Shown here piece by piece: positions 1,353 to 34,287 of a stretch of DNA of 58,736 bases. The stretch comes from an uncultured Oscillospiraceae bacterium. GTDB lineage: Bacteria > Bacillota > Clostridia > Christensenellales > CAG-138. Under the pieces are notes generated by a model that was given only the letters and a program-made list of their open reading frames with translations, was not told the origin of the DNA and searched no databases. Location: contig CAYTHS010000004.1 in assembly GCA_964437665.1 (NCBI GenBank), positions 1 through 58,736 on the forward strand, in the 5' to 3' direction. Position 1 is the first letter of the stretch, and every line of letters starts with the position of its first letter. A program made the translations under genes and the position numbers.

Positions 1353-1353
1353 T

Positions 1354-15945: not shown

Positions 15946-17325
15946 ATGGGGTATAACGATATGGCAAGAAACACGGTTTTCATCAAAGGCGCGCGCATGG
16001 CGGCGGAAAACGGCGGGGAACAGATCTGCAGCCTGTTGCTTGCGGACGGCAAGATTGCCGCCATAGGAACAGACGAAGCGCCGGAGGGTGCGGAAACGTT
16101 CGACGCGACGGGATTGGTCGCGCTGCCGGGCGCGGTGGATTCCCACGTGCATTTCTTTATGCAGGCGGCGAACGGGAAAAGGAATGCGGACGATTTTTAC
16201 GCCGGTTCGAAAGGCGCCGTCTGCGGCGGTACGACGAGCATTGTCGATTTTGCGAGTCCCGTTCCTGGCGGAAGCTGGACGGACGGCGTGAACACCCGCC
16301 GCGCGGAAGCGGACGGGAACGTGTTTTGCGACTACGGGCTGCATATGGAGGTCACGGGCGCGTTTGAACAGGATATTTCAAGACTCGGCGAACTGCTCGA
16401 CGCGGGCGTACGCGTATTGAAGATCTACACGACCTACGGCGCGGACCGTTATCCGCGTAAAAAACTGCACGCGCTGTTTGCCGAGGCAAAGCGTCTGGGG
16501 ATGCCGGTCCTGGCGCACTGCGAAGACGACGAAATCATCCAGAAAACGAAACGACGCATGTGCAGGGAAGGCCGGATTGCGGCGGCGCTGCACGGGGTCA
16601 GCCGTCCGGCGGCTGCGGAGATTGCCGCAGTGCAAGAACTGATTGCGCTTTCGGAACAGACGGGCGCGGAATTGATCGTCGCGCACGTTTCCGTGGGCGA
16701 AGCGGGACTGTTGATTGCCTCGGCGAGAAAGCGCGGCGTACCGGTCCATGCGGAAACCTGCCCGCACTACCTTCTGCTCGACGAAAACCGCTATGCGGGG
16801 AAAGAGCCGCAGCGCTGGATTATGACCCCGCCGCTGCGGTCGAAGCGCGACGGCGAAATTCTCTGGGGACTGCTCGAAAGCGGCGATATCGGTATGGTTT
16901 CCACCGACCACTGCCCGTTTGCGCTTGCGCAAAAGCTCGCTGAGCCGACGTGTTTCGGCGCGATTCCCGGTGTAGGCGGGTGTGAAAACATGGTGTCGCT
17001 GCTCTTTTCGGAAGGGTATCAAAAAGGCCGGCTCACGCTGTCACAGCTTTGCAGAAGGCTGTCGGGCGAAGCGGCGCGGCGGTACGGACTATCCCCGCAA
17101 AAGGGAGGACTTACCGCCGGTTCGGACGCGGACGTGGTGCTGATTGACCCCGGCGCGCCGCGGGTTCTGCGCGCGCAAAGCGAGCACGGCAACGCGGGAT
17201 ACTCTATTTGGGAGGGGTTTCCGGTCGGCTGTTCGGTGCGGTATGTATTTTTGCGCGGGGAGCTCGCCGCCAGGGACGGCGAACCAGCCGGTGTGGCGCG
17301 GGGTATGTTTTTGCACAAAAAATAA
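15946..17325 (+). CDS. hydA: Dihydropyrimidinase / D-hydantoinase family cyclic amidohydrolase
   Basis: PGAVDSHVHF, GGTTSIVDF, KIYTTY, AHCED, HVS, ETCPHYL, MTPPLRS, STDHCPF, PGVGG.E. Start is either 15946 or 15961. Confidence 0.88.
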   Translation: MGYNDMARNTVFIKGARMAAENGGEQICSLLLADGKIAAIGTDEAPEGAETFDATGLVALPGAVDSHVHFFMQAANGKRNADDFYAGSKGAVCGGTTSIVDFASPVPGGSWTDGVNTRRAEADGNVFCDYGLHMEVTGAFEQDISRLGELLDAGVRVLKIYTTYGADRYPRKKLHALFAEAKRLGMPVLAHCEDDEIIQKTKRRMCREGRIAAALHGVSRPAAAEIAAVQELIALSEQTGAELIVAHVSVGEAGLLIASARKRGVPVHAETCPHYLLLDENRYAGKEPQRWIMTPPLRSKRDGEILWGLLESGDIGMVSTDHCPFALAQKLAEPTCFGAIPGVGGCENMVSLLFSEGYQKGRLTLSQLCRRLSGEAARRYGLSPQKGGLTAGSDADVVLIDPGAPRVLRAQSEHGNAGYSIWEGFPVGCSVRYVFLRGELAARDGEPAGVARGMFLHKK

Positions 17326-17531: not shown

Positions 17532-18680
17532 CTATGTGCTGAAACGTTCCGGCGAATAGGACTTTGCGTCTTCGGGAATCGTCCCCGTTTTCCAGTAGGA
17601 AGCGATCATATCCCCGATGGCGGGCGAGAGCGCGACCGCGCTGTGAAACGAATTCGCGATAAAGAGGTTGCCCGGCGAAGCGAACGCGCCGAAAACCGGC
17701 CGTTTATCTGGTGTGAAGGAAACAAGACCCGCCCACATACGGATGATTTCCAAGTCGGAAAGCGACGGGAAGAGACGGAGTACGCGGCGGGCAACGGCGC
17801 GCGGCCCCTCGAACGTGTTTGATTTGTCATAGCCGTCCGGTCGTGTGGTGGCCTGCGCCATGACGATGTTGCCGGAGGATGTCTGTGAAAGGCACGCGCC
17901 AACGACCATCGGGTTTTCTTCAGGCGGCTGGTTAAAAAGCGCGCCGTCGGTAATCATGCGCCGGATATGCGGAGCCGTCGGCATGCTTACCATCGCTTCA
18001 CCGCGTTCGTAGCAAACGGGCGTGTCGCGCCCGGCCATCCGGGCCAGATCGCGTGTCCAGGCTCCGCCTGCGAGTACGAACAGATCGGCTTTCACGCCGC
18101 CATCCGGCGTTTCGAGCGCGGAAACGAGCCCGTTATCCAGATGCAGGCCGGTCACGGGCGTATGCGGGCGCAGGCTTGCGCCGAGCTGCTTTGCGCGCGC
18201 GGCCATATGGAGGTTGAGCTTGAACGGGTTGACCCGTCCTTCGCCGGGACACCAGCATGCGCCGACGACCTGTCTTTCATCGAGCGCCGGTTCGAGTTCC
18301 TTTGCGCGTTTTGCGGAGACGAGGCCGATATCGTCCAGCCCGAGCGTCTTTGCGTGGCGGCACAGCCTCTCAAGCACAGCCGCCTGCGCATGGCTCGTCA
18401 GCGGGATGAGACCGCCGGACGGGACGTATTCCACATCGCCGATTTTTGCCTGTAACGCGTCCCAGTTTTGCTGCTGCTCGAGCGCGAGCGACATGCAAAG
18501 CCTGTCCTCTCGGTAACTGAGTACGCAGAATCCGGGATTGGTGCACGAAGCGCCCGCGCAGAGATCGTCCTTTTCGAGAAGGACGACGCGTGCGCCCGCC
18601 GCCGAGAGTTTCCAAGCCGCGGCTGCGCCGATTACGCCGCCGCCGACGATTGCAACGTCGAAATGCCGGTCTTTTTGCAT
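17532..18680 (-). CDS. FAD-dependent oxidoreductase, DAO family (sarcosine oxidase beta / HcnC / proline dehydrogenase beta-like)
   Basis: IVGGGVIG Rossmann motif, GASCTN.G, EGRVNPFKL, IIRMWAGL...TPDKRPVFG, C-terminal ALSPAIG. Confidence 0.85.
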   Translation of the reverse strand: MQKDRHFDVAIVGGGVIGAAAAWKLSAAGARVVLLEKDDLCAGASCTNPGFCVLSYREDRLCMSLALEQQQNWDALQAKIGDVEYVPSGGLIPLTSHAQAAVLERLCRHAKTLGLDDIGLVSAKRAKELEPALDERQVVGACWCPGEGRVNPFKLNLHMAARAKQLGASLRPHTPVTGLHLDNGLVSALETPDGGVKADLFVLAGGAWTRDLARMAGRDTPVCYERGEAMVSMPTAPHIRRMITDGALFNQPPEENPMVVGACLSQTSSGNIVMAQATTRPDGYDKSNTFEGPRAVARRVLRLFPSLSDLEIIRMWAGLVSFTPDKRPVFGAFASPGNLFIANSFHSAVALSPAIGDMIASYWKTGTIPEDAKSYSPERFST

Positions 18681-18691
18681 GCTCACCCCCG

Positions 18692-19660
18692 TCAAAGCGT
18701 GTTGAAAAAGTAGCTTTTCAGCAGCATGTCCGCGTCGGTCTGTCCTGCAAAAAACGTTCTGCCGGTCTTTTGATTGGTTAATTCGATGCGCGCGACCTTG
18801 TGTACGTTCGTATCCATCTTGAAGATGTCGCGCCCTGCGGCGTCATAGAGTTCGGCGAACGTTTTGCCGTTGTGCTCCGTGCCGGAAAACACCATGTGCG
18901 GCAGGACGCGCTCGATTTCTTCGTCCCTGCAGTATACGACATATTTTGCGACTGAGCCGTAGAGCGTGGAGGAATTGACGCGGTCCATTGCGATTAACTC
19001 GTCTTCGATTACCGGCGGAATTGCCGCGCTGCCCGAGAAGGACTTCACCTTTTCGAGCGGAAAACCGTTGTAGCCGAGTCCCCAGAGCGAGACCTCTGCC
19101 ATCCGCGCGGCGATCTGCACACATCCCACGAGACTGCCGGTTTTCGCCGCGAGCAGGTACACGTTTTCCGGCTTGACGCCGCAGGCCTGCGCCACCTCGT
19201 CCGCGACGGACTCGTCCGGAAGCGCGGCGGTCTGCAGTGCGAGGGCGGTTTTTTCAAATTTATCGTGGTACGGCCACATCTTTGCGATTCCGTCGTGGTA
19301 TGCGATTGCGCGCGCGGGGCCGGAGCCGAAGCCGGGCAGCTTGTACGCGCCGGAAGGCTTGATCTTCCAGGCGGAAAACTGGGAGGAAAGCGCCGCCTCC
19401 TGCGGATGGTCCAGCCGGATCTCGACGCTCTCGAGTTCGCGGGCGCCGACGTGGATTTTGCCGAATGCAACTTCACCGAGCGCACCGAGCGTGACCAGCG
19501 TGAACAGCCGTGCGGCCTCCCAGCCACCGGGAGCGTGAACGCCCATGTCGATTATGTTCGTTCCGTTTTTCAGCGTGTGTCGTTCGCATCCAAGCTCCCA
19601 AAGGCGCGGCAGAATCCGCTCCTCAATGAGCCGGCAGGTGTTTTGACTCAGACTAAGCAT
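18692..19660 (-). CDS. mch: Methenyltetrahydromethanopterin cyclohydrolase homologue (Mch-1)
   Basis: IIDMGV.APGGWEAA, ALSSQFSAW, GSGPARAIA, P....VA..CGV.PENVYLL.A.TGSLVG.VQIAARMAE, G.A.IPPV, AM.R.N...LYG. 322 aa, matching Mch size. Confidence 0.85.
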   Translation of the reverse strand: MLSLSQNTCRLIEERILPRLWELGCERHTLKNGTNIIDMGVHAPGGWEAARLFTLVTLGALGEVAFGKIHVGARELESVEIRLDHPQEAALSSQFSAWKIKPSGAYKLPGFGSGPARAIAYHDGIAKMWPYHDKFEKTALALQTAALPDESVADEVAQACGVKPENVYLLAAKTGSLVGCVQIAARMAEVSLWGLGYNGFPLEKVKSFSGSAAIPPVIEDELIAMDRVNSSTLYGSVAKYVVYCRDEEIERVLPHMVFSGTEHNGKTFAELYDAAGRDIFKMDTNVHKVARIELTNQKTGRTFFAGQTDADMLLKSYFFNTL

Positions 19661-20966
19661 GTAATTCCTCCATTATTCGGGTCAATACCGCAAAAAACTC
19701 TGCGTGAACGGCCGATTCGTCGAAACCGGTCACAACGCCTTCATGCAGCACAGGCCTGCCTCCGACGTATACGTCCCGCACGTCGCCGGAACGCGTGCAG
19801 TAGACCAGCGTTGAAATTATGTCCCCTGTGCCGAAGCCGAGGTGAGCCTTTTGCAACGGCACGATCGAAAAGTCTGCCGGCAGGCCTTTTTCGAGTACGC
19901 CGGAATCGAGCGAGAGCATCCGTGCGCCGCCTGCGGTCGCCATGCGGAATACGTCCTTTGCCGTTACGGCGGTCGGGTCCTGACACGCCGCCTTTTGCAG
20001 CATCGCCCCGAAACGCATCTCTTCGAACAGGTCGAGCCGGTCGTTGGAAGCCGGTCCGTCGGTCGCAAGCGCGATGTTGACCCCGGCACGCATCAACGCG
20101 GGGACCGGACAAATGCCGCTGCCTAGTTTTGCGTTGCTCTTTGGGTTGTAGACGAGCGTTATGCCGCGCTCGGCCGCGAGCTCGATTTCCCGCGGGGTCA
20201 TATGCACGCCGTGCACCGCGGAAAAACGCGGCGAAAGCAGGCCGAGGCGGTCGAGATAACAAAGCTCCGGTTCGCCCTTCTCGGCGACGCACTGGCGCGC
20301 TTCCGCGGCGGTTTCGTCAACATGTGTCTGCACGCGCGAGCTGTAGTTTTTTGCGAGCGCGGCGATGGAGCGCATTGCGGATTCGCTGGTCAGGTTCGGC
20401 TCGGACGGGGTCAGCACGCACTTTTCCGGATATGTCCCGAGCAACCGTTCGATCTCCGCAAGATCGCGCTTCAACCCCATGGGCGTGCTCATGAAAAGGT
20501 CGGCCAGTTCGATGCCGGCATAGCCGTGAACGCCGGCCTGCGCCGCAGCACGGAATATGCCGTCCTGCGCGTAGTTGACGTCCATGTCGAGAAAAGCCGT
20601 CACGCCGCTTCTGAGCATTTCCGCGATGCCGCACGCCGCCCACAGGTACGAAAACCGTTCGCGTTCCGGCTTCGGGATTTTCCCGTAAAGCGCGGCGACC
20701 ATCGGGCCGAGCACCTCACCGCACCAGCCGCTCAGCGGCAGGTCGTCCCGCCGCCCGACCAGCAGCATTTGGTACAGGTGCGTATGTGCGTTGACAAAGC
20801 CCGGCAGCACGGCGCAGCCCGCGCAGTCGATTTGCTCCGCGCCGCTCGGTACGGGCAGACGTGCGCCGACGCTTCGGATCCGTCCTTCTGCAACGAGCAT
20901 GTCCACGTTTTGCAAAACGTCGTCCGCGTTTACAACTAGATATGAAATGTTCTGAAAAACACGCAT
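19653..20966 (-). CDS. Amidohydrolase, MTA/SAH deaminase (MtaD)/AtzA-like
   Basis: PGFVNAHTHL, HVDET (HxxE), AVHGVH, NPKSNAKLGSG, LATDGPASN. Start refined to ATG at 20966. Confidence 0.88.
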   Translation of the reverse strand: MRVFQNISYLVVNADDVLQNVDMLVAEGRIRSVGARLPVPSGAEQIDCAGCAVLPGFVNAHTHLYQMLLVGRRDDLPLSGWCGEVLGPMVAALYGKIPKPERERFSYLWAACGIAEMLRSGVTAFLDMDVNYAQDGIFRAAAQAGVHGYAGIELADLFMSTPMGLKRDLAEIERLLGTYPEKCVLTPSEPNLTSESAMRSIAALAKNYSSRVQTHVDETAAEARQCVAEKGEPELCYLDRLGLLSPRFSAVHGVHMTPREIELAAERGITLVYNPKSNAKLGSGICPVPALMRAGVNIALATDGPASNDRLDLFEEMRFGAMLQKAACQDPTAVTAKDVFRMATAGGARMLSLDSGVLEKGLPADFSIVPLQKAHLGFGTGDIISTLVYCTRSGDVRDVYVGGRPVLHEGVVTGFDESAVHAEFFAVLTRIMEELHA

Positions 20967-21016
20967 GTCAAACAAGTCCTTTGATACTTGCGTTCGCAAA
21001 ACCGCGGTCCGGGCGG

Positions 21017-24585: not shown

Positions 24586-25695
24586 CTATTCGTCGATCGG
24601 CGCGCGCGGGTCTATCGTTCCGTCGATCAGCCCCTGATAAGCGGCCTGCATCTTTTCGAGAATGTCCCCCGGGACCTTCTCCTGCGTGACGGGGTCGTCG
24701 AACGTAAACGAAATCACGCCCTCGGCGGCGCCGACGGTACGGCCCGTGCCGTATGCAAGCGTGCCGGTCACCGCGCCGTATGCCGCGTCGTATGCCGCCT
24801 GATAGCCCTGCACGAGCGTACAGCCGACGATTGTGTCCGGTGAGAGCGATATGGCGTTGTTGTCGTTCGCCACGGCGTATTTATTCTGTGTTTCGGCTTC
24901 GGTCACGCATCCGTAGGCGGAGGCGCCGGTGGTATAGTACACGACGTCAGCGCCCTGCGCGAACAGCGCGCGCGTAACGTCCGCGCCCTTCTGCGGGTCC
25001 ACCCAGTCGCCAATAATCGAATTGAGGACTGTGATATTCTCACCGGCGGCCATCACGCCGTTGGTAAAGCCGGTTTTGACGTCCACCTCCCAGGCGTCGT
25101 ACACGTCCGTAAACACGAGGCCGACGACAAGGTCGGCATTAGCGCGTTCCATATCGCTCTGTGTGATCAGTCCGCAAAAGTATCCGCCGAGGTAACCGAG
25201 CTGGTAGAGGTCGAAAGACACGCCCCATACCGTGGACGGGATAACGCCGCCGTCGAACTGGCTTTGATACCCGATCAGGTCGGCGTCGATAAGCACAAAC
25301 TTCTGATCAGGATAGGATTTGAGTGTTTCTTTGACGCAGTAACGCATCACGTCCGTCGTGGTAAAAATCACGTCATAAACACCCGCCTCCGCGAGGCTCG
25401 TCAGATATTTACCGTAAGCCGTCCACTGGTCGCCGCCTTCGACCACCTTCGGTTCGGGTGCGCCGAGGTCCGAACAGGCCGTGCGGATGCCGTCTGCGAT
25501 CATTTGGAAAATTGCATTTTCACCTTCGATGCCGGGTAGCATCAGCGCGGTTTTGAAATCTTCGTAGGCGCTTCCGCCGGAGCTTTCGGAGGTTTCGTCC
25601 GAGGCCCCGTCCGCGGAGGGCGCGGCTTCTCCGCAGGCGGCGGCAAAGAGCAGCAGCAGACAGAGCAGAATGGCGAGGATTGCTTTGCGTTTCAT
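24586..25695 (-). CDS. BMP family ABC substrate-binding lipoprotein
   Basis: Lipobox AAACG, GYLGGYF.G, F.NGV, GADVVY...GAS..G. Start refined to ATG at 25695. Confidence 0.85.
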   Translation of the reverse strand: MKRKAILAILLCLLLLFAAACGEAAPSADGASDETSESSGGSAYEDFKTALMLPGIEGENAIFQMIADGIRTACSDLGAPEPKVVEGGDQWTAYGKYLTSLAEAGVYDVIFTTTDVMRYCVKETLKSYPDQKFVLIDADLIGYQSQFDGGVIPSTVWGVSFDLYQLGYLGGYFCGLITQSDMERANADLVVGLVFTDVYDAWEVDVKTGFTNGVMAAGENITVLNSIIGDWVDPQKGADVTRALFAQGADVVYYTTGASAYGCVTEAETQNKYAVANDNNAISLSPDTIVGCTLVQGYQAAYDAAYGAVTGTLAYGTGRTVGAAEGVISFTFDDPVTQEKVPGDILEKMQAAYQGLIDGTIDPRAPIDE

Positions 25696-25727: not shown

Positions 25728-26675
25728 TTATACGAGCAGTTCGGGGTACAGGGAACCTGCGCGGAACGCCTTGCCGCACGCCGGATCGAAGACTTCAGCT
25801 ACGGCGAGCTTGTTGATATGCTGCAGGTTCGGGATTTTGAAAAAATCGCCGCCCGCCTGATCGAGCAGGTCGGAAAAGTACGCACCAAAGATATCCGCCG
25901 ACTCAAACGCGAGTTTTTTTGCAAGCTTCTCCGGGTCGAGACCGGAGGTTTCGTTCAATGTGAGGCGGGAAAACGCGCCATAGTGCAGAAAATCGTCAGG
26001 AAGCAGCGCTTTTCCGCTCTTTGTTTTTGCGCCGGGAGGGCAGACGGGGGCATAACCTGCGACGTACGAAACACAAGACGCGTCAATCCCGAGAGAACGT
26101 TCCATGGTAAAGATCATATTCTCGTTCATGCGGCCCGCGATCTGCGCCGCACCGAGCGTGCTGTCCTGTGCGGCTACGAGCAGGGTCAGTTTCTCCGGCG
26201 AACAGCCGGCGGCGTCCGCCAACAAAGAAACCCAGCGGTCATCCGGCGTTTCGTCCGCCTGCACGAGCGCGCACAGACTGCCGCCGGACGGGTCGCTTGG
26301 ATCGCCGATTTCTTCCGTGTGCTCCAGGTGCAGTTTGAGCGGACCGGAGATCATATGACCGGAAAACGAGTGCGCGGACTGCAGTGCGAGCGCCGCAAGA
26401 CGCGGATATGCGGTTTCGGAGCGGACAAACGGGTACGTCCGGTCACACAACGGCGCGGAGTATGCCCGCGTTTCGGCCAGCCCGCCTTGGCAAAGCGCCG
26501 CAGCCAGCGCGCCGGCGGCCGTGCTGCCGGGCGTCTCGTTTTCCACGGTTATCAGCAAAGCGCCGCAGTGCGCACGGCTGGTGACGAGTCCGTATGCGCC
26601 GGCGTTTTGCGTTAGTTCGCCGATCAGCGCTGCACAGTTCGATCCGATTTTGCCGAGGGTCGGTTTTTCGCGCAT
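25728..26675 (-). CDS. Divergent methenyl-H4MPT cyclohydrolase homologue (Mch-2)
   Basis: GS..AG...A..CQGGL, P.LAAL..Q, SGP, P....LA...GC.PE.L.LLVA...S..G.AQIAGRMNE, G.APVCP, LHYG. 315 aa. Alignable by eye to Mch-1. Confidence 0.65.
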   Translation of the reverse strand: MREKPTLGKIGSNCAALIGELTQNAGAYGLVTSRAHCGALLITVENETPGSTAAGALAAALCQGGLAETRAYSAPLCDRTYPFVRSETAYPRLAALALQSAHSFSGHMISGPLKLHLEHTEEIGDPSDPSGGSLCALVQADETPDDRWVSLLADAAGCSPEKLTLLVAAQDSTLGAAQIAGRMNENMIFTMERSLGIDASCVSYVAGYAPVCPPGAKTKSGKALLPDDFLHYGAFSRLTLNETSGLDPEKLAKKLAFESADIFGAYFSDLLDQAGGDFFKIPNLQHINKLAVAEVFDPACGKAFRAGSLYPELLV

Positions 26676-26708: not shown

Positions 26709-27917
26709 CTAGAGCGCTTTGATTTTTTCACCGAGCGCTTCCAGTTCCGCTTCGCGTTCGCGGTCGGCTTCGCTTTGCGGACAGATATCCGTGCTCAGCG
26801 CTCCGGTCGGGCAAACGTCCGCGCATGCACCGCAGGCCCGGCACAGATCGGTATCGACATGCATGTTGGGGTAGTCGAGCGAACGCGCGCCGTAACTGCA
26901 TATGGTTACGCAGCGGCGGCAGTTCGAGCAGCCGCGCGCGCCGGTGCGCGCGTTGGCGTAAGGTTCAAAGGTGAATTTAAGCCGTGAAACCACGTCTGAT
27001 TCCGGCAGGAACGGCAGTACAGCGCCGCGCGCGGATTCGATATCCGGATACCCGAGTTCAGCAAGCAGAGAGGAAAGGTCGCGGCAAAGGCGTTCGACAA
27101 CGTCGATACCGCGCAGGATGCCGATCGTGCAGATGCCGACACAGGAGCAGCCGGCCATGAAATATTCCACCGCGTCGTGCGCGCTCATGCAACCGCCGGA
27201 TCCATAGAGGTTGCTAAAATCCGTGCGGCGCTTTGCGATACCTGCGTTGACATGCAGGCTCAGCGGCCGGAGCGCTTCGCCGCTCATCCAGCCGCGCCCG
27301 TCCGCACCGGCCAGCGCTGGTCGCGCATGCTCTACGTCGATCTTCAGCACGGGACCGATGGAGTCGATTGCGCAGATGCCGTCCGCGCCGTGTTCGATGC
27401 ACCGTATCCCCGCTTCGACCGCATCCGGCCAGTTGGTGGAGAGCTTGCAGACTACGGGGATATCCACGAGGTTTTTCGCGGTCTCGAGCATCGGGAGCAT
27501 CGCTTCTTCCGAATAGGAAACCAGTTCAATCATGTCCGCGCCTGCTTTCGCCGCGTCCGGAACGATCACGCGCGCTTCCTCAGGCGTGTGCCCGACGGAT
27601 GCAATCACGACCGCGCCGGCTTTTTTAGTCAGCGGGATTTCGCGCTCGTACCATTGTTCACGCTCCAAATCCGACCATTTTTCGCAGTTGACGAGCGAAC
27701 TGTGGCCGAACGCGGCGATATGCCGCACGGGGTTGATGGCGCGGCCGATGCGGATGGTCTTGGTCACAACCGCGCCGCAGCCTGCGCGGTGTGCGCGTAT
27801 CAGCCCCTCCGCATTGTAGCCAAGCGGTCCTGAACTAAGGATGAAAGGCGTTTTCAGCGGGACGCCGCAAAGCTCGGTCGAGATATCGGCTCCGGTAAGA
27901 GTGTTCGGTTCAAACAT
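26709..27917 (-). CDS. Dihydropyrimidine dehydrogenase PreA-like FMN TIM-barrel with C-terminal 2x[4Fe-4S], atypical active site
   Basis: PFILSSGP, GAVVTKT, KLSTN, GWMSG..LRPLSL, GSGG. C-terminal CSNCRRCVTIC and CRACGACADVCP. Confidence 0.8.
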   Translation of the reverse strand: MFEPNTLTGADISTELCGVPLKTPFILSSGPLGYNAEGLIRAHRAGCGAVVTKTIRIGRAINPVRHIAAFGHSSLVNCEKWSDLEREQWYEREIPLTKKAGAVVIASVGHTPEEARVIVPDAAKAGADMIELVSYSEEAMLPMLETAKNLVDIPVVCKLSTNWPDAVEAGIRCIEHGADGICAIDSIGPVLKIDVEHARPALAGADGRGWMSGEALRPLSLHVNAGIAKRRTDFSNLYGSGGCMSAHDAVEYFMAGCSCVGICTIGILRGIDVVERLCRDLSSLLAELGYPDIESARGAVLPFLPESDVVSRLKFTFEPYANARTGARGCSNCRRCVTICSYGARSLDYPNMHVDTDLCRACGACADVCPTGALSTDICPQSEADREREAELEALGEKIKAL

Positions 27918-29244
27918 GTTGGGTTTCCTCCTGTATTCCGGCCCAGAACTCCTTTGCGCATTGAGAAAGCTCCGCCTTTGTTTCGGCGGCGTTTACGGTG
28001 AGCAGACGGTGGTCCCTCTTAAGGAAACGGCCATTCGCCATCACGTCACAGACGTTCTGCGGGTTGCGGAAGAGTACGAGCTGGTCATAAACGTTATACC
28101 GGTTGATCGGGGTGGGCGTGTCGAGATCGATGGTGATCAGGTCCGCTTTGCAGCCCGGTTCAAGCCGGCCGGTATCCGGCAGTCCGGCCGCCCGTGCGCC
28201 GAGCGAGGTCGCCATGCGAAAAACGGCTTCGGCAGGCATCACGTTCGTGTCCTGACAGTGCGCTTTGGGGATTAAAAAAGCGCCGCGCATGATTTCGAAA
28301 AAATTATTGATATAGCCGTCCGAGCCGAGCCCGACCGTCATGCCGCGCGAGAGCATATCGCTCACTGGGGCGACCCCGCCGCCGACTTCGCAGTTGGACA
28401 GCGGCATATGTACGGCGCGCACGCCGCGTTTTGCGAGGATGTCCAGTTCGGCGGACGTAACCTGTACGCACTGGGAGGCGAGTACGGTTTCGTCCAGAAA
28501 GTTAAGCTCGTCGTATACTTCGACCGGACGTTTACCGTAGTGCGCAAGCGACCAGTCCGGCTCGAAAACGCTTTCCGAGAGGTGCATATGGATCCCGCAT
28601 CCGAGTTCGCCCGCAATGCGTTTTGCTTCCTTAATATATTCCGGGTTGCAGGTAAAGAGCGTGTGGATGCTCATCATGCCGGTTACGGAGGCTCCGCAAC
28701 GGTTGTGTGCGCGCACGAATCCGGCATTTTCCATAAGTCCCAGTCTGGCGGCCTTTTCGCCCGCCCGCTGACAGGCCTCGAATGTGAGGATTGCGCGAAG
28801 GCCTGCCTGCCGTGCAACGTCCCGCCCGATTTCCAGCGCGTGCGGAATTGCGTTCGGGGCTTCGAGCACATCCAAGAAGGTCGTCACGCCGCAGTCAATC
28901 ATCTCCGCCATGCCGTATGCGCTCGTTGCGCGGACAAGATCGTGATCGATGCGGTTTTCAACACACGGCCACCAGAAATCTTCCAGAAAACTGGAAAACC
29001 CGCCCGCGGGCACGGTCGCCGTGATGCCGTGGGAAAGCACGCCGTAAAGGTGCGTGTGGCCGTTGACGAATCCCGGAGCGATCAGCTTGTCCGGCACGTC
29101 GATAACGGAATCGCCCGGTTCGGGGGCGAGCGCCGCGTTTGGGCCGACCTGCAGAATGCGATCGCCCGACACGACCACGCCCGCGTTTTCAATCAGACCG
29201 TCCGGTCCTAAAAGGTATCCGCCGCGGATGACGATGCGGGACAT
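27910..29244 (-). CDS. Amidohydrolase, SsnA-like
   Basis: PGFVNGHTHLYGVLSHG, GVTTFLD, HTLFTC, IHMHLSES, HMPLSN, LGSDG. Start refined to ATG at 29244. Confidence 0.85.
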   Translation of the reverse strand: MSRIVIRGGYLLGPDGLIENAGVVVSGDRILQVGPNAALAPEPGDSVIDVPDKLIAPGFVNGHTHLYGVLSHGITATVPAGGFSSFLEDFWWPCVENRIDHDLVRATSAYGMAEMIDCGVTTFLDVLEAPNAIPHALEIGRDVARQAGLRAILTFEACQRAGEKAARLGLMENAGFVRAHNRCGASVTGMMSIHTLFTCNPEYIKEAKRIAGELGCGIHMHLSESVFEPDWSLAHYGKRPVEVYDELNFLDETVLASQCVQVTSAELDILAKRGVRAVHMPLSNCEVGGGVAPVSDMLSRGMTVGLGSDGYINNFFEIMRGAFLIPKAHCQDTNVMPAEAVFRMATSLGARAAGLPDTGRLEPGCKADLITIDLDTPTPINRYNVYDQLVLFRNPQNVCDVMANGRFLKRDHRLLTVNAAETKAELSQCAKEFWAGIQEETQHV

Positions 29245-29330
29245 ATTTGCCACCTCCGGTTCGGGGAATTGTCCGTTTCCCGTTTTGCTTTCCGGGAAAG
29301 GAAGGGGAAAAGGAACTTGTTTATCCTTTT

Positions 29331-30722
29331 CTATCTGGATATACGAGGGAGAACATGGATCGCTTCCCCGGTGAAACGCTGGACGCACTCCATAAACGCC
29401 TCCGAGAGTGTCGGGTGTGCGCGCATGGTGTGTGCGGCCTCTTCAACGGTGAGCATCGCCTTCATGGACGTTGCCGCCTCGGCGATCAGGTCGCTTGCAT
29501 GCGGCCCGGCGATATGCACCCCGAGGATACCACTGCAATCGCTCTTGGAGAGGATTTTGATAAATCCGTCCGTTTCACCGAGCGAAAGCGCTTTACCGTT
29601 GCCTGCAAAATGGTAACGAGAGACAGTGTAATCGACGCCGCTTTCCCTAAGTTGCGCCTCGGTTTGGCCAATGGCGGCGATTTCAGGGAAGGCGAATACG
29701 CAGTTTGGCACGAGTGCGTAATCCACGCGCGTGTGCATGCCGCACATGCGTTCGACGCAGACGCGGCCCTCGTCGGAGGCAACGTGGGCAAGCATAACGC
29801 GCCCGGTCACGTCGCCGATGGCGTAGATCCCGTTTACGTTCGTGCGGTAGTTTTCGTCAACCGGGACGCCCTTGCGGCCGAAAGCGACGCCCGCGGCTTC
29901 AAGGTGCAGCCCGTCCGCGCAGGGTACGCGGCCCGCGCAGGAAAGTACATGCGTGCAGTCGATCGAAACGGGGCCGTTCGGTCCGTCGACCGAAACGCAC
30001 AGATTACCAGGTGCTCCCTCGATCCCGGTCACTTTGGTTCCGGTCAGGATCGAAACGCCCTGTGCGCGGAGCCGTTTCGCGGCGAATTTTGCGAGTTCGC
30101 CGTCGAGGGTGGAGAGGATGGAAGGCAGGAATTCCACAATCGTGACCTGCGCGCCGAACGCGCGGTAAACGCCCGCCAGTTCCGTGCCGATCACGCCGCC
30201 GCCGACGAGCACGAGGTTTTCCGGGATTTCGTTCAGCCGGAGCGCGGAAGCGCTGTCCAGGACATAGTCGCGTTCAAAACCGGGAATCGGCAGTGTTACG
30301 GATTTGCTTCCGGTCGCGACGATAAAAGCGTCCGCCGTGCAGGTCTCGTTCCCGACACATAGGGTATTTGCGTCCAGGAAGGAGGCTTCGCCCGGCATAA
30401 CGGTCACGCCGTTGGCCTTTAGCAGCGAACGTACGCCGGAAACCAGCGTTGCGACAACTTTTTCCTTGCGCGTACGGGCTGCCTCGAGATCGAGACGAAC
30501 CGCTTCGGTGTGTACGCCGTAACGAGAGGCGTTTTTCGCCTCCATGAGCACCTCGGCGGTGCGATAGAGCGTTTTGGTCGGGATGCAGCCGTGGTTGAGA
30601 CACGTGCCGCCGATGCGTTCGCGTTCGATCAAAGCGACTTTTTTCCCCAGTTGTGCGGCGCGGATAGCCGCGACGTAGCCGCCCGGTCCGCCGCCGATGA
30701 CGATCAGTTCAAAATGCAGCAT
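29331..30722 (-). CDS. lpdA: Dihydrolipoamide dehydrogenase (E3)
   Basis: GGGPGGYVAAIRAAQLG, GGTCLNHGCIPTK, AIGDV, LAHVA..EG, HPTLSE. Confidence 0.95.
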   Translation of the reverse strand: MLHFELIVIGGGPGGYVAAIRAAQLGKKVALIERERIGGTCLNHGCIPTKTLYRTAEVLMEAKNASRYGVHTEAVRLDLEAARTRKEKVVATLVSGVRSLLKANGVTVMPGEASFLDANTLCVGNETCTADAFIVATGSKSVTLPIPGFERDYVLDSASALRLNEIPENLVLVGGGVIGTELAGVYRAFGAQVTIVEFLPSILSTLDGELAKFAAKRLRAQGVSILTGTKVTGIEGAPGNLCVSVDGPNGPVSIDCTHVLSCAGRVPCADGLHLEAAGVAFGRKGVPVDENYRTNVNGIYAIGDVTGRVMLAHVASDEGRVCVERMCGMHTRVDYALVPNCVFAFPEIAAIGQTEAQLRESGVDYTVSRYHFAGNGKALSLGETDGFIKILSKSDCSGILGVHIAGPHASDLIAEAATSMKAMLTVEEAAHTMRAHPTLSEAFMECVQRFTGEAIHVLPRISR

Positions 30723-30731
30723 GACGGCGCG

Positions 30732-32021
30732 TCACCTCCAGTCGGTTTCGTTCAGGATATCGACGACTTCCTGCAGATAGCGGCAGGCGGGCGCGCCGTT
30801 GAGCACGCGGTGATCGTAGGTCAGGCAAAGATTCATCACAGGCTCGATAAACACCCCGCCGTTCTTGGCGATCGGCATGTCCCGCAGTTTGCATACGCCA
30901 AGGATCGTTGTTTCCGGCGGGTTCAGAATCGGCGTGAACGAGGTCGCGCCCGCCATGGCGAGGTTTGTGACCGTCGTGGCAGCGTCGCCGAAGTCGCTTT
31001 CGGACAGCCCGCCGCTTTTGGAGCGTGCGGCGAGGCCGGAAACGTCCCGGCAGAGCGCGCGCAGCGTTTTTTTGTCCGCATTGCGCACGACGGGAACGAG
31101 CAGCCCGCGTTCGGTATCGACCGCTACGCCGATGTGCACCCCTTCCGGCAGAAGGAAGCTTTTTTCATCATGATACTGCATCCGCACGTCCTCGCGGGAA
31201 GCGAGCGCGCGGGACACGGCAAATACGATCATCGCCGTGTATGAAAGCTTGATTCCTTCTGCTGCATAGATCGGTTTGAGCCGTCTGTACGCCGAAGCGA
31301 GCAACGCAAAGCCGCTCTCGATGCAGACGGTTGTCTGCGCGGCGGTTTCGAGACTCTTTTTCATCGCGGCGGCGGTCGCGCGCTGTACACTGTTCATCGG
31401 GACGACCTTCACGCTCGCGGGCTTGCCGTACGTTTTCACGTCCGCGACGGTCACCATGCCAAGCAGCCCGGTGCCGCGGATATGCTCGTAAGAAAGGTGT
31501 TGCTTTTCGGCGAGCATCCTTGCGCGCGGCGTGATGGAAACCGGGTGTGCGGGGGATTGTTCCTTCGGCATGTCTGCCGCGGCGCGCACGTCGTCGATTG
31601 TGATTTTCCCATCGCGGGCGGTGCCGGTCACTGTGCTTGGATCTAATCCACGTTGCTGCATGACGGTTTTTGCGCGCGGGGTGGCGGATACCGCATAACC
31701 GGCGGACGACGGTTCAATCGCCGGCTTCGGCGCGGGTGCGGATTGTACAGCCCCGTGCGAAGACGCGGGGGAGGCGGACTCGCCCGGTTCGCCGATTGAG
31801 CAGATGGGTTCCCCGCATGGCGCGGAGTCGCCGGGTTCCAAAAAATATCGAAGCATCGTGCCGTCCGCAGAGGCGACGGCGTCGTTGGTGAGCTTTTCCG
31901 CTTCGATCACGGCGATCGGATCGCCGCGTTTCACCTTGGCGCCGATGGGAACGAGCCATTCGGAGACGACGCCTTCTTCCATAGACAGCCCGAATTTGGG
32001 CATAATTTCAATCGTTGCCAT
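30732..32021 (-). CDS. Dihydrolipoamide acyltransferase (E2), AcoC-like with two peripheral-subunit-binding domains
   Basis: MPKFGLSMEEG, lipoyl motif EAEKLTND, ATPRAK and ITPRAR binding domains, GLLVPVVR, TYDHRVLNG. Confidence 0.9.
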   Translation of the reverse strand: MATIEIMPKFGLSMEEGVVSEWLVPIGAKVKRGDPIAVIEAEKLTNDAVASADGTMLRYFLEPGDSAPCGEPICSIGEPGESASPASSHGAVQSAPAPKPAIEPSSAGYAVSATPRAKTVMQQRGLDPSTVTGTARDGKITIDDVRAAADMPKEQSPAHPVSITPRARMLAEKQHLSYEHIRGTGLLGMVTVADVKTYGKPASVKVVPMNSVQRATAAAMKKSLETAAQTTVCIESGFALLASAYRRLKPIYAAEGIKLSYTAMIVFAVSRALASREDVRMQYHDEKSFLLPEGVHIGVAVDTERGLLVPVVRNADKKTLRALCRDVSGLAARSKSGGLSESDFGDAATTVTNLAMAGATSFTPILNPPETTILGVCKLRDMPIAKNGGVFIEPVMNLCLTYDHRVLNGAPACRYLQEVVDILNETDWR

Positions 32022-32108
32022 TTTTTGCCCTCCCTGGGCGCGTATTTGTACTCGCGATGAAAAAAACGGGCCGAGGATGCGTTTCATCGCTGCCAAACGA
32101 CCGCCTTT

Positions 32109-33086
32109 TTAGAACGCCGCAATCTCTTTTGCGGCGCGTACAACGTCCGCAGACCTGAGCATATAATAGTCTTCGAGCACAGGCGCGAATGATACCGGCA
32201 CATCCAGGCACGTCACGCGTGCAACCGGCGCGGCGAGGTATTCAAAGTATTTTTCACCGATCATGGCGGAAATCTCCGCCGCCCAGCCGCCGACCTTCGG
32301 GCCTTCCTGCGCGATCACGAGACGCCCCGTCTTTGCGACCGACGCGGCGATCAGTTGCTCGTCGTAGGGCTTGATCGTGCGCAGATTGATCACTTCCGCC
32401 GAAACGCCTTCCTTTTCGAGTTCAGCTGCGGCTTTAAGCGCCATGCCGACGGTGATTTGCAGCGCGGCGATAGTCACGTCCGTGCCCTCGCGCTCGATCA
32501 CCCCCTTGCCGAGCGGCAGGGTATAGGGTTCCTCCGGCACGTCGCCCTTTGCGTTAAGCAGCATTTTATGCTCCAAAAAGAGCACCGGATCATCGCTCCG
32601 GATGGCGGAAATCAAGAGTCCTTTGGCTTCATACGGCGTGGCGGGGGAAACGATCACGAGGCCGGGAGTGCTTAAAAACCAGCTTTCGACCGTCGCGGAA
32701 TGATGGTAGGCGCAGCGGATACCCGCGCCCTGCGGCGCGCGGATGACGACGGGGCAGTTCGCCTCGCCCTGAAACATGAAGTTGAGCTTGGCGGAGCTGT
32801 TGACAATCTGGTCGAACGCAACGCCCGCGAAGTCCGCAAACATGATCTCCGCGACGGGCCGCAGCCCCGCGATGGCTGCGCCGTTTGCAAGGCCGACGAT
32901 TGCCGACTCGGAGAGTGCAGTGTCGAAAATGCGGTCCGGCCAGCGGTGATAGATGTTCTGCGTCAGGCCGAAATCGCCTCCCATTTTGGCGACGTCCTCG
33001 CCGAGCACGAACACGGAATCGTCCCGTTCCATCTCTTGGATCAGGGCTTCGTTGATCGCCTTGGTATAGGTCAGTTTGCGGCTCAT
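32109..33086 (-). CDS. TPP-dependent 2-oxoacid/acetoin dehydrogenase E1 beta
   Basis: VLGEDV, DTALSESAIVG, PVAEIMF.DF, HHS..VE, DDPVLFLEHK. Confidence 0.92.
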   Translation of the reverse strand: MSRKLTYTKAINEALIQEMERDDSVFVLGEDVAKMGGDFGLTQNIYHRWPDRIFDTALSESAIVGLANGAAIAGLRPVAEIMFADFAGVAFDQIVNSSAKLNFMFQGEANCPVVIRAPQGAGIRCAYHHSATVESWFLSTPGLVIVSPATPYEAKGLLISAIRSDDPVLFLEHKMLLNAKGDVPEEPYTLPLGKGVIEREGTDVTIAALQITVGMALKAAAELEKEGVSAEVINLRTIKPYDEQLIAASVAKTGRLVIAQEGPKVGGWAAEISAMIGEKYFEYLAAPVARVTCLDVPVSFAPVLEDYYMLRSADVVRAAKEIAAF

Positions 33087-34066
33087 CGTTCCACCTCCAC
33101 CGTAAATCCTTCGTATACGTGCGAAACCGCTTCCGAAACGTCCGGTACGGGGCTTTCGATCGAGAAACGCAGCATTTCTTTTATCTGCGCGTCTACATCG
33201 CCCTCGATGGCCCCGAGTTCTTCTTCGGATACTTTTTCGCGTTCCTTAAGTACGTTTCTCGTGAGCAGCACGGGGTCGCGCTTTTTCCAGTAGGCGAGCT
33301 CTTCTTCCGGCCGGTAGGAGGCGGGGTCTCCTGCAAAGTGCCCCTGCCATCGGTAGGTAACGAACTCGATCAGCGACGGGCCGCCGCCGCTTCTGGCGAT
33401 CTGCACCGCCTGTTCCGTGGTTTCGACGACGGCTTCCACATCGTTTCCGTCCACACGCCACGAAGGCACGCCGTAGCCGTCCGCCCACTGGCGCAGTTCT
33501 TGCTGCGGGTGCGCGGTGCCGCAGGGCGTCGAGATCGCGTAGCCGTTGTTGATGAGGCAGTAGACCACCGGCAGTTTCCAGGTTGCGGCCATGTTCAGGC
33601 TCTCGTGGCAGGTGCCTTCACCAAGCGTTCCATCGCCCATGAATACGGCGGAAACGTCGTCCGTGTGGCGGTATTTGGCCGCGAACGCCGTTCCGAGCGC
33701 GGTGACGACGGTCGAACCCTGAATGCCGTTGAAGCCGTGATTCCGGCAGGACCAGTCGTGGATATGCATGGAACCGCCGCGGCCGCCGTTGACGCCCGTG
33801 GCCTTGCCGAAAATCTCGGCCATAACGTATTTGGGATCGGTTCCGCATAAAAGAATCGCCCCGTGGCCGCGGTGGTCGGGGTATTTGTAGTCTGTTTTTC
33901 TCAGCGCGCGCACCACGCCCGCCTGACAGGCTTCCTGCCCGGTGGAAAGGTGCACGAAACCGGGGATGGTGCCGTTCGCTGCATATTCCTTGATCACGTC
34001 TTCAAAATTGCGGATCAAAAACATATCGCGGTAAAGTCCCTTGAGACGCTCTTTTTCCAATGCCAT
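33083..34066 (-). CDS. TPP-dependent 2-oxoacid/acetoin dehydrogenase E1 alpha
   Basis: PGFVHLSTGQEA, HRGHG, GRGGSMH, GDG..GEG...ESLNMAA.WKLPV....NN, TYRW.GH..GD. Confidence 0.92.
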   Translation of the reverse strand: MALEKERLKGLYRDMFLIRNFEDVIKEYAANGTIPGFVHLSTGQEACQAGVVRALRKTDYKYPDHRGHGAILLCGTDPKYVMAEIFGKATGVNGGRGGSMHIHDWSCRNHGFNGIQGSTVVTALGTAFAAKYRHTDDVSAVFMGDGTLGEGTCHESLNMAATWKLPVVYCLINNGYAISTPCGTAHPQQELRQWADGYGVPSWRVDGNDVEAVVETTEQAVQIARSGGGPSLIEFVTYRWQGHFAGDPASYRPEEELAYWKKRDPVLLTRNVLKEREKVSEEELGAIEGDVDAQIKEMLRFSIESPVPDVSEAVSHVYEGFTVEVER

Positions 34067-34287
34067 AATCATTCCTCCGATTTCAGATGCTCGACGCTGT
34101 CTGCGGTTTCTATAGATTCCCCGCGCGGCGCAGAAATGCCGGAGCGGGCGTTGTATGCATAAGAGGTGTGGCTGCCGGATGGGCGAGAACCGCTGTTTTG
34201 CGGCGCGGCGCCGCAGATACGACCGATAAGATTTTTAATGGAGAGACGTATTTTTGAATGGCTGGCGCGAATGTATCGCGCCAGCCG

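Follow-up and report, generated by a model that had tools for sequence, protein, structure and literature searches.

A non-canonical Mch-fold protein in a clostridial operon points to a role of the family in the breakdown of nitrogen-ring compounds

Gene content of the locus

The window, the whole 58,736-nucleotide stretch of DNA from an uncultured Oscillospiraceae bacterium that was analyzed here, carries a minus-strand catabolic operon encoding two homologs of methenyl-H4MPT cyclohydrolase (Mch). The operon includes genes for 2-oxoacid dehydrogenase E1α, E1β, E2 and E3 (29331..34072; E1α is pyruvate-dehydrogenase-like), a set that precedes Mch-2 in every cluster from Clostridia. An SsnA-like amidohydrolase (27910..29388; 263 bits against NF005540, cut-off 444) is followed by a PreA/DHODH-like flavoprotein with two 4Fe-4S motifs (26709..27917), which resembles UacX (PMC12507026). 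Mch-2 (25728..26675) comes next and precedes a BMP-type ABC importer, consisting of a substrate-binding lipoprotein of the BMP/PnrA family (24586..25695; PF02608; its listed ORF extends to 25779), an ATPase (22986-24542) and two permeases (21931-22989 and 21017-21934), the ATPase and permeases being assigned by synteny. The coordinates therefore bear out the predicted order of PreA-like protein, Mch-2 and ABC binding protein. Further downstream are AmhB, a deaminase-type amidohydrolase (19653..20969; PF01979) whose listed ORF runs to 21392 and whose start near 20969 is a reading from relatives of ~440 amino acids, and Mch-1 (18692..19660). The last gene of the operon encodes a DAO-family FAD oxidoreductase resembling the β subunit of glycine/sarcosine oxidase (17532..18695; PF01266 209 bits, ThiO 138 bits).

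Other genes of the window lie on the plus strand. A dihydropyrimidinase/hydantoinase (HyuA-like; 15946..17325) is convergent with the operon and scores 367.8 bits against TIGR02033 (cut-off 393). A divergent four-gene electron-transfer set (Fer2_4, Pyr_redox_2, BFD/SO_alpha_A3 and a 2x4Fe-4S protein; 35226..37441) is conserved beside the operon. At the contig end are an FhcA/FwdA-like amidohydrolase cut by that end (3-1352; TIGR03121 337 bits), an FhcC/FwdC-like protein (1288-2094; TIGR03122 93 bits) and an MptN/MyfB-like ATP-grasp ligase of the RimK type (2025-2945; NF040720 226 bits). The gene context also includes a PfkB ribokinase-like kinase, two Mo-hydroxylases and a YgeY-like gene. Neither YgeW nor YgeX is among the genes annotated in the window, the 37.5-58.7 kb part of which was covered by sampling.

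Mch-2 comprises 315 amino acids read from an ATG start on the minus strand, and a strong Shine-Dalgarno sequence (AAGGAGG) lies 5′ of this ATG. The same sequence precedes the start of the BMP-family protein, whose likely ATG at 25695 is 33 nt past the Mch-2 stop. In an operon scan, terminator or promoter matches inside the operon, which would divide it, stayed near chance level, and the sole plausible terminator was found at 17411-17389, after the DAO gene. No RNA run was found to contain the Mch-2 gene. The Mch-2 translation reads AAQIAGRMNEN, MISGPLKLH, LLPDDFLHYGA and TPDDRWVSLLADAAGCSPEKLTLLVAA, and every motif quoted in the original prediction is found in it. A plus-strand gene at 25728-26675 is ruled out, as frame 1 meets a stop; the 311-aa plus-strand ORF at 25680-26615 that overlaps Mch-2 is a high-GC shadow frame and no gene.

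Fold, active-site residues and selection

Mch-2 had been proposed as a second, more divergent Mch paralog, and profile and structure searches confirm both the intact frame and the fold. The protein matches Pfam PF02289 (MCH) over profile positions 5-307 of 311 (E 1.5e-35; 123.4 bits, cut-off 25), and its sequence directly matches the solved Mch structures 4fio, 1qlm and 4gvq with E-values of 1e-19 to 1e-21. Its AF2 model has a pLDDT of 95.2 and is aligned by Foldseek to 1qlm, 4gvq and 4fio with TM scores of 0.82-0.83 and a probability of 1.0. The next Foldseek match has an E-value of 0.19, and nothing else rises above noise. Identity to the solved Mch proteins in structure-based alignments is 24-26%. 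Against TIGR03120, the equivalog model for EC 3.5.4.27, Mch-2 scores 118.5 bits, below the cut-off of 228.8. Mch-2 is an intact, non-canonical member of the Mch fold.

Mch-1 (322 amino acids, clade A) is a near-canonical homolog, scoring 292 bits against PF02289 and 237.9 bits against TIGR03120, above its cut-off, and matching 1qlm with an E-value of 4.7e-57. It carries His at the family-wide Phe284 and Ser at Asp228. The two copies share 26% identity, and BLASTP aligns only their C-terminal 182 residues.

Residues were compared at the 26 alignment columns with a conservation of 85% or more among 85 canonical-like Mch sequences, using Methanopyrus kandleri numbering. Mch-2 keeps Q93, S109-G110-P111, S173, G176, Q179, R183, E186, G208, P211, P214, D228, G262 and F265. 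In its own numbering, R182, E185 and Q99 align to M. kandleri R183, E186 and Q93, and the S110-G111-P112 loop is kept. In 2012, Upadhyay and colleagues reportedly assigned catalytic roles to Arg183, Glu186 and a Gln of segment 93-95 of Mch. Twenty residues are invariant across 37 members of the Mch-2 clade, R182, E185 and Q99 among them. D227, H231 and N288 are invariants specific to the Mch-2 type, and D228 is conserved family-wide. No clostridial clade keeps the family-wide Phe284, which is Asn (Asn288) throughout the Mch-2 clade, His in clades A-C and Asp in clade D. The family-wide Asp37/Gly39 motif is lost in the Mch-2 subclade of the window, where T43 and E45 are found instead; this loss may impair or alter catalysis.

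The dN/dS ratio of Mch-2 is 0.06-0.18 in 12 pairs (NG86; some values for the BMP protein, AmhB and SsnA were disregarded as artifacts of paralogs or of frame mis-extraction). Every full-length relative examined is free of internal stops, and a TAA flagged in the ortholog of one genome (G161) lies outside the gene, which is intact. Identity among relatives is 42-62% for Mch-2 vs 66-85% for Mch-1. Mch-2 has evolved about twice as fast as its neighbors, mainly in its N-terminal domain. That Mch-2 is a decaying, functionless duplicate would fit its conservation between relatives, lower than that of any other operon protein, and its score well under the TIGR03120 cut-off. However, this reading is barely credible, as the selection and conservation data already contradict it: the low dN/dS and the 20 residues invariant across phyla rule out a pseudogene or relaxed selection, which the original prediction had named as grounds for rejecting it, and the frame is intact, the ribosome-binding site strong, the model confident and the position of the gene kept in 16 clusters. 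Judged from these comparisons, Mch-2 is under purifying selection.

Distribution, conserved neighbors and formyl handling

In the family tree, Mch-1 and Mch-2 fall in deeply separated clades, which rules out a recent tandem duplication of Mch-1 and agrees with the earlier proposal of two different substrates, in that the copies are not redundant. The Mch-2 clade is deep and separate, with members in Clostridia, Thermotogae and Bipolaricaulota. Mch-2 is not the derived copy: its type is found more widely than that of Mch-1, and Mch-1 looks like the addition. Carrier genomes have 2 to 13 matches to the Mch model, and the family has expanded within one clostridial family. One genome (G015) has 13 matches, at least 8 of which read as full-length; another (G007) has 8, including 6 full-length.

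Co-occurrence of the two clades is found in part. In 7 further Clostridia genomes, 3 of which were submitted as single chromosome records, exactly one Mch-1-type and one Mch-2-type gene are present, 2-7 kb apart, and G007 has a second paralogous pair, an Mch-2-type gene and a sister of Mch-1 accompanied by DAO and an AmhB-like gene. In MAGs of Thermotogae and Bipolaricaulota (G151-G153), the Mch-2 type is the sole Mch present, and the clostridial G015 cluster carries it but lacks Mch-1. Mch is oligomeric, and Mch-2 could be conceived as a non-catalytic or structural partner of Mch-1 in a mixed oligomer, where it would tune the specificity of Mch-1. The strict one-to-one pairing in Clostridia, the second pair in G007, the faster evolution of Mch-2, mostly in the N-terminal domain, and the loss of Asp37/Gly39 in the subclade of the window would suit such a partner. 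It is nevertheless a very improbable one, given that the Arg, Glu and Gln residues, needless for a scaffold, are invariant across the whole clade. The heteromer suggested in the original prediction is, at least in an obligate form, unlikely because the Mch-2 type occurs without Mch-1.

The position of Mch-2 is conserved in 16 informative clusters, and SsnA and the PreA-like UacX homolog are absent from 4 of these. In four clusters the order is Mch2-AmhB-Mch1-DAO, uninterrupted by transporter genes. AmhB adjoins Mch-2-type genes in three phyla, and MAGs of Thermotogae and Bipolaricaulota have Ftr, Mch-2 and AmhB side by side. The nearest solved structures to AmhB are MTA/SAH deaminase 4f0r and TM0936. 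The conserved neighbors of the Mch-2 clade are Ftr and the purine-type deaminase AmhB, not the SsnA/PreA-like pair, which is facultative. A module of amidohydrolase, optional reductase and Mch does occur twice in the window, as had been noted; it is no conserved unit in relatives, and the amidohydrolase that is conserved beside Mch-2 is AmhB, encoded downstream, not the upstream pair with which Mch-2 had been grouped.

Formyl-handling genes are linked to the cluster. On contig C82, the genome of the window encodes an Ftr that scores 359 bits against TIGR03119, above the equivalog cut-off of 292.6. Its Fhc-like set further contains the FhcA- and FhcC-like proteins (the former 5′-truncated), both below their cut-offs, the MyfB/MptN-like ligase and an FhcB-like protein that is a short and very divergent remnant (26 bits). 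In one other locus (L035), FhcA, FhcC, the ligase, the FhcB-like protein and Ftr are contiguous with Mch genes. Of this set, only Ftr accompanies Mch-2 in Thermotogae and Bipolaricaulota, where a Zn-ADH, a DAGK-like kinase and a sugar-type ABC system lie beside Ftr-Mch2-AmhB. Homologs of these three lie beside Ftr on C82, a different contig of the assembly from that with Mch-2 and AmhB. An Ftr of equivalog grade and a MyfB/MptN-like ligase would also suit a true carrier system of the H4MPT/furan type. The original prediction had two ring-opening substrates or a heteromer "rather than a single C1 step", a wording that proves too strong: since a complete Ftr/Fhc-like set is linked to the cluster, formyl (C1) chemistry probably follows ring opening.

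Markers of cofactor biosynthesis were searched for in carrier genomes. β-RFAP synthase (TIGR00144) is absent from ~6-7 of them including that of the window, 3 of the genomes being single chromosome records, and MfnB (PF04476), of methanofuran/methylofuran core biosynthesis, is absent from 7; positive controls were matched in both searches. The absence of biosynthesis is read from these two marker families and leaves room for other routes or for cofactor uptake. A search for methylene-H4MPT dehydrogenase (MtdA/B; PF09176) had 0 of 7 genomes matching, with no control genome matched either. These results bear on whether Mch-2 could be a second true methenyl-H4MPT cyclohydrolase that, with Ftr and Fhc, oxidizes C1 units from heterocycle breakdown on H4MPT and methylofuran, the cofactor being made by an unrecognized route. 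Its intact catalytic residues, the Ftr above NCBIfam equivalog cut-offs, the FhcA, FhcC, FhcB-like and MptN/MyfB-like proteins, and the equivalence of this gene set to the "archaeal-like" cluster of methylotrophs (PMC8141765) speak for such an isoenzyme. However, it is an unlikely one: the two biosynthesis markers are missing where controls were positive, the Mtd search, itself lacking a positive control, was empty, Mch-2 falls far below the TIGR03120 cut-off, Phe284 is replaced, and 2-13 matches per genome would make no sense for a single step at the cofactor level.

Carrier genomes come from sludge, wastewater and sediment, habitats rich in methanogens. It has to be considered, then, that Mch-2 and Ftr strip C1 units from exogenous methanopterin-type cofactors of neighboring methanogens, before the pterin is deaminated and oxidized and its ribitol or ribose is used as carbon. 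Mch and Ftr, which are unrelated folds that bind H4MPT, occur together beside uptake systems in three phyla without the biosynthesis markers, and genes suited to polyol or sugar use co-travel with them (Zn-ADH, DAGK-like kinase, DeoC aldolase, ADP-ribosylglycohydrolase and PfkB). The deaminase and Mo-hydroxylases would suit pterin breakdown. However, the case is purely circumstantial, and Phe284, conserved in H4MPT-binding enzymes, is lost; up to 13 matches in one genome suggest many substrates, and UacX, SsnA, HyuA, YgeY and the BMP importer suit purines at least equally well. Scavenging of this kind is quite unlikely. The same low standing applies to its wider form, whereby Clostridia, Thermotogae and Bipolaricaulota living beside methanogens would import and degrade an archaeal coenzyme through a retuned Mch-2 and Ftr, the Mch family having radiated onto further pterin- or purine-like substrates.

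Proposed role and comparison with known systems

On balance, Mch-2 is favored, by a modest degree, to be a catalytically competent hydrolase and to represent a separate subfamily that opens the cyclic formamidine of an imported purine- or pterin-like intermediate and does not act on methenyl-H4MPT made by the cell. The purine- or nucleoside-like context is suggested by the kinship of AmhB to MTA, SAH and adenosine deaminases and by the BMP/PnrA importer, PfkB, the Mo-hydroxylases and the UacX-, SsnA-, HyuA- and YgeY-like genes. A non-classical substrate is suggested by the TIGR03120 score, the replaced Phe284, the missing β-RFAP synthase and MfnB, and the number of Mch matches per genome. In the proposed mechanism, Glu185, Arg182 and Gln99 would activate water, which would open the ring at the N-CH=N carbon of an amino-substituted heterocycle that probably bears a sugar or polyol. 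The product would be an N-formyl amine, whose formyl group would pass to the co-encoded formyltransferase of the Ftr/FhcD type; in the organism of the window, the FhcA/B/C-like hydrolase part could then free it as formate. AmhB is posited to work on the same scaffold, and Mch-1 may catalyze the corresponding reaction at a second ring or at a later intermediate. Because Mch catalyzes a reversible reaction, it is also conceivable that Mch-2 closes the ring.

To our knowledge, Mch is known only from methanogenesis and methylotrophic formaldehyde oxidation, and databases name all homologs accordingly. A full-text literature search found no publication that places a bacterial Mch or Ftr in the catabolism of heterocycles. 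The present data reveal an Mch subfamily that is conserved, under selection and equipped for catalysis, and whose genes accompany those for Ftr and a purine-type deaminase in the catabolic operons of three or more bacterial phyla without the cofactor-pathway markers. They point to an undescribed role of the Mch family outside methane and methanol metabolism, within a cluster for the breakdown of N-ring compounds. If this is true, it would constitute a new anaerobic opening of N-heterocycles, from cyclic amidine through N-formyl amine to formate via Ftr/Fhc, and fill missing steps in the anaerobic degradation of purine-, pterin- or nucleoside-type compounds. It would also correct a systematic mis-annotation and demonstrate that "archaeal" C1 enzymes can be recruited to other chemistry.

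Canonical Mch (EC 3.5.4.27; PF02289, TIGR03120; 1QLM, 4GVQ/4GVR/4GVS, 4FIO) has in common with Mch-2 a two-domain fold, a similar length, the Arg/Glu pair, the Gln of the active-site segment and the S-G-P loop, and in methylotrophs it is likewise encoded near an Ftr/Fhc set. However, Mch-2 reaches about half the TIGR03120 cut-off, has Asn in place of Phe284 and possesses a new invariant motif, PDDxxHY. Genes for a deaminase, an importer, a 2-oxoacid dehydrogenase and a flavoprotein share its catabolic operon, and the host of Mch-2 lacks the markers of methanopterin and methanofuran biosynthesis.

The hydrolytic opening of a C-H amidine in a purine ring to an N-formyl amine, followed by deformylation, has counterparts in other enzyme pairs, namely PurH/PurO (IMP cyclohydrolase/AICAR transformylase) and ArfA/ArfB (GTP cyclohydrolase III and formamide hydrolase). 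The chemistry of Mch-2 may be modeled on that of Mch itself, on PurH/PurO running in reverse or on ArfA/ArfB. The chemical logic of the latter two systems would be alike, whereas their folds and families are unrelated to Mch.

Another comparison is offered by the reductive uric-acid (2,8-dioxopurine) cluster, XdhD-YgfK/UacX-SsnA-HyuA-YgeW/UacY-YgeY-YgeX (PMC12507026; bioRxiv 10.1101/2025.04.24.650524). The text of both papers contains no mention of Mch, methanopterin, Ftr or Fhc, and a single mention of a "cyclohydrolase" (PMC12507026). The window shares Xdh-like, UacX-like, SsnA-like, HyuA-like and YgeY-family genes with this cluster, and Mch-2 directly follows UacX and SsnA. Mch-2 is also present in clusters devoid of SsnA and UacX, however, and the SsnA-like and HyuA-like proteins of the window score below equivalog cut-offs.

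The formyltransferase/hydrolase complex Fhc of methylotrophs, which contains a methylofuran prosthetic group (PMC6926001, PMC8141765), differs in that an MfnB-type furan synthase and, by its markers, H4MPT synthesis are absent here, FhcB is present only as a remnant, and Ftr stands alone beside Mch-2 in Thermotogae and Bipolaricaulota. The formyl donor would probably be a catabolic intermediate. The two systems nevertheless have in common FhcD (Ftr), FhcA, FhcC, an FhcB-like protein and a RimK-type ligase like MyfB, all linked to Mch genes, and the expected output of both would be formate from an N-formyl donor.

Fold and constraint of Mch-2

Mch-2 (25728-26675, minus strand) is a protein of 315 aa whose ATG start lies five bases downstream of AAGGAGG, and its translation contains all the motifs quoted in the original prediction. 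The next gene encodes a BMP-type binding protein, for which the ATG at 25695, 33 nt past the Mch-2 stop, is the most likely start; this ATG is also preceded by AAGGAGG. Plus-strand translation of 25728-26675 is interrupted by a stop, and a 311-aa plus-strand ORF antisense to Mch-2 (25680-26615) was read as a GC-rich shadow frame rather than a gene.

Mch-2 matches the Pfam MCH model end to end (E 1.5e-35, 123 bits), and phmmer recovers all four distinct solved Mch sequences with it. An AlphaFold2 model, computed from an alignment of 37 clade members (mean pLDDT 95.2), was matched by Foldseek to 1qlm, 4gvq, 4gvr and 4fio at TM 0.81-0.83 with probability 1.0; beyond Mch structures, the remaining PDB matches were noise. 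The predicted Mch fold is therefore confirmed. Against TIGR03120, the equivalog model for canonical Mch, Mch-2 reaches half the cut-off score.

In an alignment of 85 canonical-like Mch sequences, 26 columns are at least 85% conserved (M. kandleri numbering), among which Mch-2 retains Gln93, Ser109-Gly110-Pro111, Ser173, Gly176, Gln179, Arg183, Glu186, Gly208, Pro211, Pro214, Asp228, Gly262 and Phe265. Work on the A. fulgidus enzyme by Upadhyay and colleagues in 2012 reportedly placed the active site at Arg183, Glu186 and segment 93-95. Twenty positions are invariant over 37 Mch-2 clade members, including R182, E185 and Q99; D227, H231 and N288 are invariant and clade-specific, whereas D228 is invariant yet conserved family-wide. 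The aromatic residue 284 is substituted across all clostridial clades: Phe in canonical enzymes, it is Asn throughout the Mch-2 clade, His in clades A-C, including Mch-1 (18692-19660, minus strand), and Asp in clade D. Asp37-x-Gly39, kept by all other Mch-2-type and canonical sequences, is lost in the subclade of the window (17 sequences), where LITVENE replaces xIDxGVx (26535-26549, Mch-2 residues 43-47). Mch-1 itself scores only just above the equivalog cut-off. Phe284, Asp228 and Pro211 are replaced in it by His, Ser and Ala, respectively, and methenyl-H4MPT may not be its substrate either.

Mch-2 evolves at about twice the rate of its neighbours, with 42-62% identity to relatives versus 66-85% for Mch-1, and the excess divergence lies mostly in the N-terminal domain. 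It is nonetheless constrained, because Nei-Gojobori dN/dS among orthologues is 0.06-0.18 (Mch-1, 0.04-0.14; E1 and the FAD oxidoreductase DAO, 0.01-0.17, mostly <0.08). That Mch-2 is a dead gene is hardly credible given these ratios and the 20 invariant positions, and pseudogenisation, which the original prediction listed (in relatives) as a refuting outcome, is ruled out.

Lineages and distribution of the two Mch types

Mch-1 and Mch-2 share 26% identity, and BLASTP aligns only their C-terminal 182 residues. A tree of 150 family members groups Mch-1 (clade A) with four other clostridial clades within the main radiation and sets the Mch-2 clade apart as a long-branched lineage; it follows that Mch-2 did not arise by decay of a Mch-1 copy.

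Mch genes occur in just 7 of the 151 genomes from the taxonomic family, and the eight other genomes sampled from the genus have none. Carriers hold 2 to 13 matches to the Mch model. The largest sets occur in GCA_038562375.1 (G015; 13 matches, eight read as full-length genes) and GCA_964440115.1 (G007; eight matches, six full-length), where the expansion spans at least six subfamilies (loci L007-L034 and L058-L069). Another seven Clostridia genomes, including three deposited as single chromosome records, each carry exactly one gene of each type, 2-7 kb apart. The Mch-2 type stands alone in three Thermotogae and Bipolaricaulota MAGs, and one clostridial cluster (GCA_038562375.1) has Mch-2 and lacks Mch-1; the Mch-1 type was never seen without the Mch-2 type among the sampled genomes. 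A second G007 cluster combines one gene of the Mch-2 type and one of clade B, the latter a sister of Mch-1, with a DAO, an electron-transfer set and an AmhB-like gene. The original prediction took the two paralogues to argue for either different substrates or a heteromer. Their distribution speaks for two distinct, cooperating functions; it is very unlikely that Mch-2 is a non-catalytic partner in a hetero-oligomer with Mch-1, and an obligate heteromer conflicts with the occurrence of the Mch-2 type without Mch-1.

Formyl-handling and neighbouring genes

In 16 informative Clostridia clusters (MAG labels Oscillospiraceae, Christensenellaceae, Clostridiaceae, Lachnospiraceae, Clostridia or Bacillota), the common order is a divergent four-gene electron-transfer set, lipoprotein, E1alpha, E1beta, E2, sometimes E3, the facultative SsnA-like and UacX-like (PreA/DHODH-like flavoprotein) pair, Mch-2, a facultative BMP ABC importer, the deaminase-type amidohydrolase AmhB, Mch-1, DAO and a convergent hydantoinase. 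The SsnA/UacX pair is missing in four clusters. In four clusters the importer is missing, giving the order Mch2-AmhB-Mch1-DAO. The neighbours shared in Thermotogae and Bipolaricaulota are solely a divergent Ftr directly upstream of Mch-2 and an AmhB-type amidohydrolase directly downstream. Mch-2 therefore has Ftr and AmhB as its conserved partners, and the repeated amidohydrolase-(reductase)-Mch module originally proposed is an accident of the local arrangement. AmhB is nearest to MTA/SAH/adenosine deaminases (4f0r, TM0936). Its ORF (19653-21392, minus strand) gives 579 aa from the first ATG versus about 440 aa in relatives; the first 140 residues are rich in Arg and Ala and their coding sequence overlaps the permease gene, and the true start is likely near 20969 (MRVFQNISYLV...).

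At the start of the window (3-2945) lie genes for an FhcA/FwdA-type amidohydrolase truncated at its 5' end (337 bits to TIGR03121), a protein resembling FhcC/FwdC (93 bits to TIGR03122) and an MptN/MyfB-like RimK ligase. Another contig of the same genome (C82:132-2092) ends with a full Ftr/FhcD, scoring above both NCBIfam cut-offs, then a 295-aa FhcB-like remnant. At locus L035, Ftr-FhcB-FhcA-FhcC-ligase-hydantoinase is contiguous with DAO-Mch1-AmhB-Mch2; therefore C82 almost certainly adjoins the window, the set being divided by a contig break. Ftr/FhcD, FhcA, the FhcC-like and FhcB-like proteins and the RimK ligase resemble a methylotroph gene set that forms the formyltransferase/hydrolase complex, in which the RimK-like ligase Orf5/MyfB builds the polyglutamate tail of the methylofuran prosthetic group (PMC8141765; PMC6926001). 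In three of the five other Ftr-bearing family genomes (G007, G015, G053), Ftr is close to the Mch-1/Mch-2 cluster, and in G141 and G055 it is on a different contig; the single family carrier without Ftr also lacks the Mch-2 type.

Beside Ftr on C82 (2141-12661) are a DeoC-type aldolase, Zn-ADH, DAGK-like kinase and sugar-type (CUT1-type) ABC system, together with an ADP-ribosylglycohydrolase and a TIM-barrel protein resembling xylose isomerase. At three Thermotogae/Bipolaricaulota loci (L052, L054, L057), Zn-ADH, kinase and permease homologues, the last for more than one permease, occur in the same order beside Ftr-Mch2-AmhB; DeoC has a homologue at L052 only. A sugar or polyol moiety is therefore a probable part of the substrate.

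Neighbour families recur around other Mch clades in G015, G007, G096 and G053: clade C and D paralogues adjoin E1-E2-E3 complexes, clade B paralogues adjoin DAO and the electron-transfer set, and BMP-type importers, AmhB-like amidohydrolases and Mo-hydroxylases are further neighbours. The pattern resembles a modular toolkit serving a number of related substrates, in which Mch would open the ring and flavoprotein and 2-oxoacid dehydrogenase steps would then harvest the carbon skeleton. Genes for a YgeY-family hydrolase (427 bits to NF009555, which exceeds the cut-off) and for a ribokinase-like kinase of the PfkB type (6059-8219, minus strand) are flanked on one side by the second Mo-hydroxylase and on the other by an ECF transporter whose S component is oversized.

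A candidate ring-opening pathway

Beta-RFAP synthase catalyzes the committed step of methanopterin synthesis, and MfnB makes the furan of methanofuran and methylofuran. The former is absent in this genome and six other carriers (three being single chromosome records) and the latter in seven genomes; control genomes were positive for both. A true H4MPT/methylofuran module, with cofactor biosynthesis by an unrecognised route, is unlikely given these absences, the half cut-off score and the replaced residue 284, and up to 13 cyclohydrolases per genome are needless for one cofactor. Scavenging or degradation of methanogen-derived methanopterin would suit the sludge, wastewater and sediment habitat, the uptake systems and the polyol genes, and is judged quite unlikely.

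Mch-2 is a Mch-fold enzyme with an intact Glu/Arg/Gln water-activating set, genetically tied to a deaminase and a formyltransferase. It would open an imported amino-heterocycle (of purine or pterin type, and possibly a nucleoside) by hydrolysis at a cyclic formamidine carbon, giving an N-formyl amine; Ftr would hand the formyl group to a carrier, FhcA would release formate, and Mch-1 may perform the equivalent reaction on a second ring or intermediate. In purines of the adenine and hypoxanthine type there are two such carbons, C2 and C8. This general mechanism, ring opening to an N-formyl amine with Ftr/Fhc handling the formyl group, is on balance probable; any particular substrate is much less so. 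The literature searched yielded no description of Mch or Ftr homologues in heterocycle catabolism, and the pathway around Mch-2 is undescribed. Mch-2 is classed as a new subfamily within a known enzyme kind, and its substrate is probably new.

N5-formyl-H4MPT is a 5-formamido-6-amino-pyrimidinone resembling ring-opened guanine; it therefore appears chemically plausible that both folds that bind H4MPT were recruited to substrates of this type. The proposed route would mirror the logic of IMP cyclohydrolase/AICAR transformylase, run in reverse, and would share that of GTP cyclohydrolase III and ArfB.
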